This document shows, piece after piece, positions 55,201 to 59,200 of a stretch of DNA of 64,000 nucleotides. The notes under the pieces are model-generated. The model was not told where the DNA came from and did no database searches. It was given only the letters and a program-made list of their open reading frames with translations. The number at the start of each line of letters is the position of its first letter. The stretch's first letter is position 1. The position numbers were made by a program, and so were the translations under genes. The DNA is from Leucoraja ocellata (Eukaryota): contig JAWMAR010000780.1 of NCBI GenBank assembly GCA_036785375.1, forward strand, positions 496,001 to 560,000, written 5' to 3'.

Positions 55201-58200
55201 AAGCAATGTTGGAGGATTGGCAAAATACCTGGCATACTGCTAACTCAGGGTTATAGTACAGCATAGCATAAAGTAGATGGGGAGGAGGAGAAGGCTACTT
55301 CAGAGAACATTGACCTACAACAGTTCCCTGGTCTATGTAATGACCTGTTAACAAACCATTATTGTCACATTATACTTTATTGTCACATGTACCTAGGTAC
55401 AGCGAAAATCTTTGTTTTTGCATACAATGTACAAAGTATGTAAAGTGCCGCCATGTAGTCAACAAAGTCCTCATTATAACCTCTCTCTTCCCGCCCCCAC
55501 CCGTTCTTGGCTACCTCTCCTGTCTCTCCTCTCCGGTCCTTCAACCTTTGTGCCCCATGGGGGGGGGGGGGGGGGGGACGGGGACGCCTCCTGAGACTAG
55601 AAAAACCTGCAACGATTCCCAACTTACGTGGTCTGCCAGTACTAGTTCTGACCCAGTCCCATGTGTTTGGAGGTGGGATTCTGTCGGGGCATTCCCACCC
55701 TGTGTGCAGAGGCGTAACACCTATGTCTGGACATCAATGTGGCCGAATCATGGAGCTTTACATTTATTTTCCAGAGCCTGTTTCCTGGGAAGGTTGGCAT
55801 TTAGTGCCCTATCCCAAATGCCCAAGGCGAAGATAGTAAATTGCCTTCTTGAACCACTGCTGTCCTTCTGGTCAAGGTACTCCCACAGTACTGTTGAAGA
55901 GGGAGTTCCAGGATTTTGAGCCAGCATTGACAAATGGGGATACACCTCCACGATGTGTGTGACTCGGAAGGTATCTTATAACAGGACAGTCAGTCTCTGG
56001 CCTGTTCCTGTAACCACTGTATTTTCATGGATGTTTCTGTGACTTTCTGGAGACAGTGATCCTCCTCGGGATACTGATGATGAACGAGTCAACGACAGTA
56101 AAACCAATGAACATCACAATTGGGTTGCTCAATTCTCACTTGCTAAGATGCTCATTTGTGAAATGATTACAGGTCAGACGTTGATAGGCACTGTCAGCTC
56201 ACACCGGAATATTGTCTAGGTCTTGCTACATGAACTGAGCTGAGCTGCTTCTAATGGAACTGAACCAATCATCTGAGAAGTTGCAATGGAAGGTCTGCAG
56301 AGGCAGCTGAAAACATTTGAGTCCAGCAAACGGTTCTGAGGCAAGGACACTTGACCTGCGATAGCCTCAACCATTCTCCAACCATAAATTCTACATCATT
56401 TTGCACGATTCTGGTTTGCTTAAATCTCACACTCACTCCACTGGGTAGGTGGATGCCTCTGCACCCAGCCTCAAGGTTTCAAGGTCAGTTTATTGTCACA
56501 TGTACCACTTAAGGGGCCTGGGTGTTTCTGGCAGTTTGTTTATCTCCATACCTGGGAACTGCGCCTGATGACCTGCAGTGCGGTCTCTCGACACAGGGCT
56601 GTCAGGTCAGCCCCAACGTAGCCACTTGTTGCTTCCGCCAGCCAGGACACATTAACATCAGCGCTCAGAGGCATCGGGGCAGTGACCGCTTCCAAAATGG
56701 ATTGGCGTTGCAACATAGTAGGGACTCCGATTGTGATCTGGAGGAAGGAACAGAAGTGGGTGACCGAGTCTGATGCTGAGTGCAAAAATGTAATCGTAAA
56801 ACAACCGGCAAGACAGGATGCGACTGAACCAAGAAATTAGGAAGTCAGTGGATGCACTGCTGCAACCAGGGAAGGGGGCACGTTTACTGCTCAAACAGGT
56901 TGAATGGATGGAGCAAGGTGGCTGGGGCAAGACCCAGTTCTGATATATAGAAACCCAATTCTCCCCTCATTGTGTCACTAGTGAAAGTGGAAACACAGAA
57001 AACATGGTTGCGTGAAGAGCAGGACTGGCAGCAATTGTTCCAGGGTGGTGGTTTCGTAGGTGTTGGTGCTGGGAGCTTTGCTGTTTGTGATGTATATAAA
57101 CAATTTGAATGGAAATGAAAACAGACCGATTAGCAAGTTTACTGATGACACAAAAACTATGGGAGTTTGAAAAAAGATTCACGAGGAAATAAAGCTGTTG
57201 GTGATGTGGGTGAAGAAATGGTAGATGGAGCCTAATACGTAGATGCAAGGTGTTGCACTTTGAAAGGTAAAATGCAAGGAGAAAGTATATAATAAATAAC
57301 AGGGCCCTTAGCAGTATTGAGGGGATACAAATCCATAGCTCCCTGCAGATGACAACACAAGCAGACAAGGTAGTAAAGAAGGTGGAAGCATGCTTGTGTT
57401 GGGACATGGAGTATAATAGCCACAAAGTCAAGTTGCAGCTGCTTAAAACTTTGTTTCGACACATTTGGAGTATCATGTACAGTTCTGGTCACCACATTAC
57501 AGAATGGATATGGAAGCCTTGGAGGACACAGAAGAGGTTCATGAGGATGTTGCCTGGATTAGAACGTATTAGCAGTTAGGAAATCATATGACAATAAAAT
57601 ACTCCTGACTCATGAGAAACTATCATTGTGTCAAACTATCACATTCGCATCAATCATATGCTGGGAACTTTTCACAACTATTCAGTCCTAGGGGCAATGA
57701 GTTATATTGCGAAATATAGCCGTATTATTTTAGATGGGCAAACATCTCGGGCTGGACACACTGGGCCAAAGGGCCCGTTTAGGTGCTGTACTAAATAAAC
57801 AGCATACCAAGTTTCACAGAACATTACTGGTTTAATATTTCTGACTGGAGAAATTGTTTACACTTTCCTCCGCTACATTTGAAATCATGTTCCCCACCTG
57901 CTGCACCTCTAACTCGACCCATGTACAGGCAACCACTGGTTCCAGGTGAAGCTTGCACTGGTCTTGAATGCGACCAACGACTAAAGTAACCAACAGACTG
58001 GCCGGAGGGAGTCCAGGGGGAAAGAGGATCAGTCCCAGCCCGAAGTCCCTACTTCCCTGGGGTGGGCTCACCCCGGTTATTGCTGTTTCCCCTCCAACTC
58101 CCGCTGGACGCAACCCTCACCTCCCGATCAAATCGTCCTGGTCTCCTCAGTGCGGGGTCCAATGCCTCGGGTCTGTCCGTTGCGGCCACTAACACGAATT

Positions 58201-59200
58201 GCCTACGGTCCTGCCCATCGAGCAGGCCGAGGAGCTGCGCCAACAGCCGGTGCTCGGCGCCCTGGCTCCGACCCGCCCTGCGGGAAAACACGGCGTCCAA
58301 CTGGTCGATGAAGAGCAGGCAAGGCCGACGTTCGGCCGCAGCACGCCCAAAGAGACGCCGGAGGCGGCGTTCGCTGTCCCCGGGCCGCGGCCCGAGCAAG
58401 GCTGAGGCTGAGGCCTCCAGCACCGTGGCGCCCAGCTCCCGGGCCAGGCAGTGCAGCAGCCGGGTCTTGCCCACGCCCGAAGGCCCGAGCAGCAGCACGC
58501 CCCGCGGGCAGTCCAGGCCCAGGCGCGCCGACGTCTTGGGGTAGAGGAGCGGCCAGGCCAGCGCCTCCCGCAGGGAGGTGAGAACAGGCTCGGGCCCCGG
58601 CCCCGGTGCCTCGGGCGGGGCTCGGCACTCGGCCCGGTACTGATCCAAACTCAGCACCTCAGCCACCTGCACCTCTGCACCTGCCGCTAACAGAGCGGCC
58701 CCAGCTGCCGGTGGATCAAGCCAGACGACCTCGAGCTGGAGCAAGGCGCCAGGACAGGCCGAGGCCTCGGGGCCTGCTACCCGCACCACCAGCCCGGCGC
58801 TCAGGTAGACGCCCTTCAGCAGGCCGCGGATCAGCGGGAGGGGGAGCGGGGACGGAGGCTCCGGGCCGTCGGGCCGCGCCGCCACCACCGCCCGCACACA
58901 CACCCGCCGGGCCCTACTGCAGCCGACGGGCTGCAACTGCCCGATGCCCAGGCTTAGGCCTCGGGCCGCGCTGTCGGGGAAGCCCGGGCTGGCGCACTTG
59001 GTGTCCAGCTGCACGAAGCCGTCGGCGCGGTCAGCCCGGGGCCAGGCGGAGCAGAGGGCCAGGCCACCGGCCACGCACACCCGTAGCGGGGCACCAAGGC
59101 GCACGGCCAGCGTTGCCAGAGCCCGGGGCCCCAGGCGGCAACGCTGCGAGTCGCGGTCCCGAGCATCGGGCGGCAACAGCCGCAGCTCCGGCCCCTCCAT
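49115..59200 (-). CDS. AFG2B: ATPase family gene 2 homolog B (SPATA5L1), double-AAA+ ATPase, spliced gene (exons 58121-59200, 56552-56737, 54994-55152, 54586-54795, 54093-54326, 51999-52133, 51005-51127, 49115-49270; 760 aa)
   Basis: N-terminal QRCRLGP..GFVQLD motifs; D1 [13 protein letters not shown] and [12 protein letters not shown]2 [21 protein letters not shown] and [13 protein letters not shown]. All eight exons join in phase 0. Minus-strand AATAAA at 49005-49010. Syntenic with C15orf48. Confidence 0.95.
49443..49557. promoter_or_regulatory. Candidate inflammatory enhancer (2x NF-kB, ISRE/IRF, GAS)
   Basis: GGGACTTTCC 49443-49452, GGGGCTTTCC 49456-49465, GAAACCGAAAGTGAAAC 49515-49531, TTCCAAGAA 49549-49557. 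Confidence 0.6.
51005..51127 (-). CDS. AFG2B: AFG2B exon 7
   Basis: ttag|ARLSILRIC...[13 protein letters not shown]|gtgagt. Confidence 0.94.
51999..52133 (-). CDS. AFG2B: AFG2B exon 6 (D2 SRH), GC donor
   Basis: ttag|[45 protein letters not shown]|gcgagt. Confidence 0.92.
54093..54326 (-). CDS. AFG2B: AFG2B exon 5 (D2 Walker B)
   Basis: gcag|[19 protein letters not shown]...QARK|gtgaaa; donor position less certain. Confidence 0.88.
54586..54795 (-). CDS. AFG2B: AFG2B exon 4 (D2 Walker A)
   Basis: gcag|SVEWPL...GPPGCAKT...[13 protein letters not shown]|gtgagc. Confidence 0.95.
54994..55152 (-). CDS. AFG2B: AFG2B exon 3
   Basis: gaag|[12 protein letters not shown]...[16 protein letters not shown]|gtaaag. 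Confidence 0.88.
56552..56737 (-). CDS. AFG2B: AFG2B exon 2
   Basis: ccag|ITIGVPT...[13 protein letters not shown]...SSQ|gtatgg. Confidence 0.94.
57060..57580 (+). mobile_element. Old CR1 fragment
   Basis: agcaagtttactgatgacacaaaa; [11 protein letters not shown]. Confidence 0.7.
58121..59200 (-). CDS. AFG2B: AFG2B exon 1 (N-domain and most of D1)
   Basis: [15 protein letters not shown]...RRPGRFDRE|gtgagg; GC-rich large first exon. Confidence 0.93.

Follow-up and report, generated by a model that had tools for sequence, protein, structure and literature searches.

Two catalytic residues replaced in the first AAA domain of AFG2B in skates and other batoids

Introduction

AFG2B (SPATA5L1) is an AAA+ ATPase that takes part in ribosome building within the 55LCC complex, where it shares a hexameric ring with AFG2A (SPATA5). 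C1orf109 and CINP are further members of the complex, which assembles as 4:2:2:2 and releases RLP24. Human cells require the complex, mutations in it occur in neurodevelopmental disease, and published work leaves open how its ATP sites share their tasks. Here we describe the AFG2B gene in a 64,000-nucleotide stretch of the genome of the skate Leucoraja ocellata (contig JAWMAR010000780.1, positions 496,001 to 560,000; hereafter the window). In its first AAA domain (D1), Gln replaces the catalytic Walker B Glu, and the sensor-1 residue is Asp instead of Asn. We consider it moderately probable, from sequence comparison, that the cis site of the batoid D1 is hydrolysis-impaired and probably nucleotide-loaded, the domain being kept for building the ring and for providing arginine fingers to AFG2A, with D2 supplying the activity of AFG2B.

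In AAA+ sites the Walker B Glu and sensor 1 hold the attacking water, and the neighbouring subunit supplies the arginine fingers (10.1101/2022.06.23.497301, PMC6696164). Changes at these positions have graded effects elsewhere: sensor-1 N709A in ClpB lowered ATPase ∼30-fold with binding little changed (PMC3940203), and E>D in lambda terminase slowed hydrolysis without abolishing it (PMC6379665). Basal activity of Drg1 comes mainly from D1 (PMC8190095).

The wild-type human AFG2B D1, with DE and ATNRP, accounts for part of the ATPase of the complex (PMC12019325). Dai et al. 2025 found reduced activity in all four single EQ complexes; for SPATA5L1 E304Q the ATPase signal was 0.69, against 1.21 for wild type and 0.16 for buffer (PMC12019325), which by our own arithmetic leaves about half of the activity after buffer subtraction. 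RLP24 retention in E304Q was 1.29-fold (p = 0.058), versus 2.76-fold for SPATA5 D2 EQ (PMC12019325). In growth rescue, E304Q was weakly reduced, E565Q rescued fully and the double mutant failed, as did every single SPATA5 mutant (bioRxiv 10.1101/2025.11.07.687187). Krishnamoorthy et al. 2024 describe double Walker A or double Walker B mutants (PMC11055677).

Results

The substitutions are present in reads and in a second genomic copy

The skate gene is AFG2B. Its exon 1 matched human AFG2B with E = 3.5e-97 and 329 bits (215 for AFG2A), the closest fold match of the protein was human AFG2B (PDB 9LGO), and a 99% identical protein, P0002, groups with Amblyraja and Leucoraja AFG2B in sequence clusters. 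The frame is open and spliced, encoding an N domain followed by two AAA domains with lids. The pore loops also match the AFG2B type, with a non-aromatic, Arg-containing GPRPGDSE in D1 and an aromatic SPFVGDSE in D2; human R274 is described at the D1 pore loop (PMC12019325).

On the minus strand the D1 Walker B reads LLFIDQLD (58318-58295; codons TTC ATC GAC CAG TTG GAC) and the sensor-1 segment reads AATDRP (58186-58169). Judged by four motifs of a complete classic-clade AAA site, this D1 has Walker A GxxGxGK[T/S] and the arginine fingers, and lacks the other two, Walker B hhhhDE and a sensor-1 Asn (or Thr/Ser). A first reading made from the letters of the window alone (the sequence-only reading) had reported both replacements along with an intact D1 Walker A and RRPGR and a canonical D2 with DE and ATNRP. 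All of this was borne out by the translation of exon 1 and by exons 5 and 6, which encode ILFLDEID and AATNRP. Its statement that human D1 has DE and ATNRP was right as well: PDB 9LGO and 8RHN show LFLDEMD and ATNRP. We depart from it on the intact arginine fingers, which act on the neighbouring subunit and are uninformative on the domain's own site.

Sequencing error, or a dying duplicate beside a canonical copy, could also explain such residues. For this, one can point to a second set of exons 2–8 on contig C421 of the assembly. That contig also holds a second AFG2B exon 1, 98% identical in DNA and probably the other haplotype, in which both codons are the same as in the window. Of the 24 sequencing runs listed, eight were examined; seven cover both codons, none of them catalogued as RNA, and X24 (raw RNA) has no coverage there. 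All seven carry the Gln and Asp codons, and no run has another letter at either. In X2, X6, X12 and X19, contigs are spliced from 58121 to exon 2. The open frame, the purifying selection on D1 and the sharing by all named batoids (both below) complete the case against assembly error and pseudogene, which we reject; the chance of either is negligible. A hidden paralogue retaining DE was sought with D1 in the same genome: the six matches were the two AFG2B copies, both DQ, and four fidgetin-type genes, so no DE copy was found. Two of the fidgetin-type genes, L005 (C152) and L006 (C35), have the non-canonical Walker B motifs FINELD and FISEAD, which we take to be usual for FIGNL2 and FIGN.

Batoids and sharks lack the D1 glutamate that other jawed vertebrates keep

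We aligned 200 homologues, 34 from elasmobranchs and 166 from other jawed vertebrates (mostly teleosts and birds). The elasmobranch set comprised 18 sequences with DQ+TD (Walker B and sensor 1), nine with DD+SS, six with DD+SN and one fragment without D1. DQ+TD was found in 18/18 batoid sequences covering D1 and in 0/166 non-elasmobranch sequences, a pattern not due to chance. It occurs in all eight named batoids (Amblyraja, Leucoraja, two Mobula, Hypanus, Hemitrygon, Pristis and Narcine), which span four orders. Sharks have DD in 15/15 sequences and in 9/9 named species, six with SS and three, carpet sharks, with SN. The 166 others all have DE, two Callorhinchus records included, and 165 of them the sensor-1 Asn. 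The D2 Walker B is DE wherever a sequence covers it. The sequence-only reading had ascribed the changes to "this lineage"; the substitutions stand, and the lineage is wider than one genome, with the eight batoids sharing them and the nine sharks having lost the Glu differently.

Other parts of the site were followed in the same alignment. Walker A G-K-T/S, the Walker B Asp and the arginine fingers of D1 are retained in all 17 named elasmobranchs. The linker signature GG/AG plus a hydrophobic residue, before D1, is found in 0/8 batoids, 9/9 sharks and 162/163 others having Walker A. The D2 GG persists in every one of the 17 named elasmobranchs and in 166/166 others. In p97 the linker GG lies along the adenine pocket. 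Its loss raises the possibility that batoid D1 has given up most nucleotide binding too, and only forms the ring and donates arginine fingers. We regard this as unlikely, though it has several points in its favour: the DQ-bearing P0340 (below) has lost the linker GG as well, an Asp near the gamma-phosphate could repel it, and in the human map ATP occupies one SPATA5/SPATA5L1 D1 centre only sub-stoichiometrically (PMC12019325). The retained Walker A and Walker B Asp speak against it, as does the absence in batoids of the broad Walker A/B loss seen in Pex1/Pex6 D1; in DnaA, moreover, the sensor-I Asp269 supports stable nucleotide binding.

A third homologue search for chondrichthyans gave no new shark or chimaera, its matches being crowded by microbial Cdc48-like and fungal proteins; among the matches listed, the first domain was DE+TN in 120/120 proteins. 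An atlas search matched generic AAA clusters only. More distant relatives came from the best 150 matches in a 50%-identity library, of which 122 two-domain proteins were placed in a tree. Here AFG2B formed a clade of 43 proteins (support 1.0). The D1 Walker B was DE in 40/42 covered (P0431 has a gap there), including those of lamprey, hagfish, amphioxus, Lingula, molluscs, Nematostella and Trichoplax, and D2 was DE+N in 43/43. Exceptions were P0340, in the animal part of the clade, with DQ+TS and the linker GG also gone, and P0444 (noted together with P0468), with DR+TS and Walker A GKE. It appears, on these alignments, that the D1 Glu is ancestral and that its loss has been rare and recurrent, always in D1 in the sampled AFG2 sets. 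A single base change turns a Glu codon into one for Gln or for Asp, and two are needed between Gln and Asp, so that independent losses of the Glu in batoids and in sharks are the simplest reading; the basis for this order is the residues found today together with the genetic code.

Some related variation was noted. Two AFG2A-like proteins have a degenerate D1 even though human AFG2A D1 EQ fails growth rescue: P0466 (Athalia rosae), with DD+TS and Walker A GTLGVGKS, and P0427 (Pinctada), with DD+TV. In paddlefish and sturgeon AFG2B (P0124, P0125), D1 has RRSGR for RRPGR, with the arginines retained. Loss of a Gly at the tip of strand 2, a residue changed in all batoids and sharks and kept in 165/166 others, was tried and discarded as convergent evidence: 12/40 of the Glu-bearing distant AFG2B lack it.

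D1 changed early in batoids

We counted as conserved the sites with a conservation of at least 97% across the 166 outgroup sequences. Changed in all eight batoids were 11/66 such sites in the D1 core, 2/84 in D2, 0/27 in the D1 lid and 3/27 in the N domain (D1 core versus D2, Fisher p = 0.0026). Branch lengths were taken from a 30-taxon tree whose shape was preset. The D1/D2 branch-length ratio was 1.7 in bony vertebrates and 1.6 in crown batoids, and reached 3.0 for the elasmobranch stem and 5.2 for the batoid stem. Scaled to the bony-vertebrate value, the median ratio over 120 bootstraps was 3.4 (5–95%: 1.8–8.2) for the batoid stem and 1.8 (0.9–3.4) for the elasmobranch stem. The N domain was not accelerated on the batoid stem, at 1.2 (0.6–2.7); since it lies in the same exon, GC-biased change of exon 1 (73% GC) is an unlikely source of the D1 burst.

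Differences within skate runs are mostly synonymous in D1 (12 synonymous, 2 nonsynonymous; pN/pS 0.067), with 8 synonymous and 3 nonsynonymous among runs in the N domain. These come from 25 exon-1 substitution differences pooled over runs, excluding rows for the intron, for positions beyond 59200 and for a 6-base linker deletion. The sole difference seen among skates in the D1 second region of homology is synonymous. On these counts and branch lengths, D1 was remodelled early in batoids and is tightly held by purifying selection now.

An early burst followed by background rate would also suit a rebuilt site, and here the sequence-only reading left something out: E>Q and N>D are an acid/amide exchange on two residues that hold the same water. 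The carboxylate would have moved from Walker B to sensor 1, Asp activating the water and Gln positioning it, so that batoids turned DE...N into DQ...D and kept a working, perhaps slower, ATPase despite the "dead" E>Q, sharks having taken a separate route (DD). The changes are reciprocal and invariant over the four batoid orders, and an Asp sensor I exists in DnaA. We nevertheless find this rather unlikely. No other Glu-less D1 has Asp at sensor 1 (sharks have SS or SN; P0340, P0444 and P0466 TS; P0427 TV), DQ occurs without Asp in P0340, and Asp is shorter than Glu.

The burst could instead mark a gain. ATP binding stabilises human 55LCC (PMC11055677), and elasmobranchs might have profited from holding D1 ATP-bound, for example through hexamer stability in urea-rich cells; loss of the same Glu by different changes in two sister lineages would suit this. 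We think it quite unlikely. Callorhinchus and Latimeria, which also retain urea, keep DE+TN; the Glu has been lost in unrelated lineages too; and relaxed constraint predicts the burst equally well.

A probably hydrolysis-impaired D1

We return to the reading that we favour, of a D1 impaired in hydrolysis. With neither Glu nor Asn to position the attacking water, hydrolysis in cis would be lost or much slowed, while the Walker A Lys/Thr and the Walker B Asp would still bind Mg-ATP. D1 would be kept for the D1 ring and for the arginine fingers lent to AFG2A. Its loss of hydrolysis would be tolerated because D1 and D2 of AFG2B are partly redundant and D2 remains active. Human cells need AFG2B activity from one domain at least, and the natural batoid state would then match one of the two states with a single dead AFG2B domain that are tolerated in the human experiments. 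The sequence-only reading had proposed that D1 binds ATP and does not hydrolyse it. Impaired hydrolysis fits all of the evidence, the human E304Q data included; binding is not secure, given the linker GG lost in 8/8 batoids. The shark D1 (DD) may be attenuated only, since E>D in lambda terminase slows hydrolysis without abolishing it.

Several observations weigh against this reading. The Glu is otherwise strongly conserved (166/166 jawed-vertebrate and 40/42 distant AFG2B), which suggests that D1 hydrolysis is under selection elsewhere. Human D1 EQ is slightly worse than D2 EQ, yet only D1 has been lost in nature. The linker change in batoids calls ATP binding into question. Sharks have no excess of changed conserved sites (D1 3/66, D2 2/84, p = 0.65). 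In crown batoids the relative D1/D2 rate has returned to background (0.94) and DQ+TD is invariant, contrary to what pure decay would produce. Sampling bears on it as well: the homologue searches found no squalomorph shark and only one species of chimaera. A predicted structure of the skate protein (pLDDT 57, pTM 0.34) was too poor for active-site geometry.

Partner genes, gene layout and neighbours

Putative genes for two AFG2B partners lie in this genome. AFG2A-type exons lie on contig C54, in a gene that we take to be AFG2A from its SPATA5 motifs; all four motifs of its D1 (Walker A, Walker B, sensor 1 and the RRPGR arginine fingers) are canonical, and so are the first three in its D2. The exon with the D2 arginine fingers was not seen within the 200 kb of C54 examined. 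A C1orf109-family gene is present on contig C117 (PF15011 match).

Features of the skate AFG2B gene are collected in Table 1. The splice donor after 58121 is evidenced by spliced contig ends in the sequencing runs. An upstream in-frame ATG lies at 59311.

Table 1. AFG2B features in the window
Feature	Positions	Strand	Remark
Coding exon 1, starting at the conserved Met: N domain plus alpha/beta subdomain of D1	58121..59200	-	
N-D1 linker GPGPEP	58586..58603	-	one run has a 6-base deletion here
D1 Walker A GPSGVGKT, intact	58463..58486	-	
D1 Walker B second residue, Gln (CAG) for catalytic Glu (human E304)	58301..58303	-	
D1 sensor-1 residue, Asp (GAC) for Asn	58175..58177	-	
D1 second region of homology ALRRPGRFD, both arginine fingers intact	58127..58153	-	serves neighbouring subunit
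Exon 2: D1 lid with GYVGADL	56552..56737	-	
Exon 3: D1-D2 linker with QVGGLD	54994..55152	-	
Exon 4: D2 Walker A GPPGCAKT (54717-54694) and pore loop	54583..54795	-	lower end approximate
Exon 5: D2 Walker B ILFLDEID (54293-54270), canonical	54087..54329	-	ends approximate
Exon 6: D2 sensor-1 AATNRP (52091-52074) and arginine fingers (RPGR), canonical	51990..52133	-	lower end approximate
Exon 7: D2 lid	50990..51127	-	ends approximate
Exon 8, through stop codon	49115..49273	-	upper end approximate

On C421 the AFG2B copy is followed by a tandem repeat of ∼16 kb (G000:C421:656356-672597, L041-L043) that holds exons 2–8 without exon 1 and matches positions 42382-57863 of the window; it is either a real duplication or an assembly artefact. 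A neighbour gene lies head-to-head with AFG2B on the plus strand (59262-64000), with a transcript spliced from 59370 to 60219 and a match to Arpin (PF10574) at 63650-63964; its first exon overlaps the AFG2B region with the upstream in-frame ATG. Fragments of LINE-type retroelements, with endonuclease and reverse-transcriptase matches, are at 18033-20429 (minus strand) and 29567-30873 (plus strand).

Discussion

Elasmobranchs are whole animals that carry the equivalent of E304Q (batoids) or E>D (sharks), and they indicate that AFG2B D1 hydrolysis is dispensable in a vertebrate if D2 and AFG2A are intact. Their alleles are natural material for complementation, for cryo-EM and for testing if the role of the Walker B Glu can be taken over by an Asp at sensor 1. 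No report of the elasmobranch D1 substitutions was found in the literature searched, which was mostly without subscription papers; alignments in supplementary figures could show them.

The closest described system is human AFG2B in 55LCC (PDB 8RHN, 9LGO), with the same N-D1-D2 layout, an Arg D1 pore loop 1 and an aromatic D2 pore loop. The batoid Walker B change is exactly the engineered human E304Q. It differs in being natural and fixed, and in coming together with sensor-1 N>D, a lost linker GG and changes at nine further conserved D1 sites.

Two other AAA+ proteins offer partial parallels. NSF D2 is a degenerate AAA domain of the same family, with DD and a Ser at sensor 1, like the shark D1; but NSF is a homohexamer, the domain concerned is the second, and its degeneration is ancient. 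DnaA has Asp269 at sensor I, needed for stable nucleotide binding; it belongs to the initiator clade, however, and the Asp is not paired with Gln, its Walker B being DD.

In function, the batoid D1 is likely to be most like the inactive D1 of Pex1/Pex6, another Cdc48-family heterohexamer, in which D1 is without catalysis and serves assembly (PMC5070193). There, all six D1 sites are degenerate across eukaryotes, Walker A and arginine fingers included (PMC5070193). In batoids, by comparison, only the two AFG2B sites of the 4:2 ring are affected, Walker A and the fingers are intact, and the change is lineage-specific. Of the marks of a pseudo-ATPase, batoid D1 shows lost catalytic residues in a fold under purifying selection, without the degenerate Walker A or arginine fingers of its Pex1/Pex6 counterpart.

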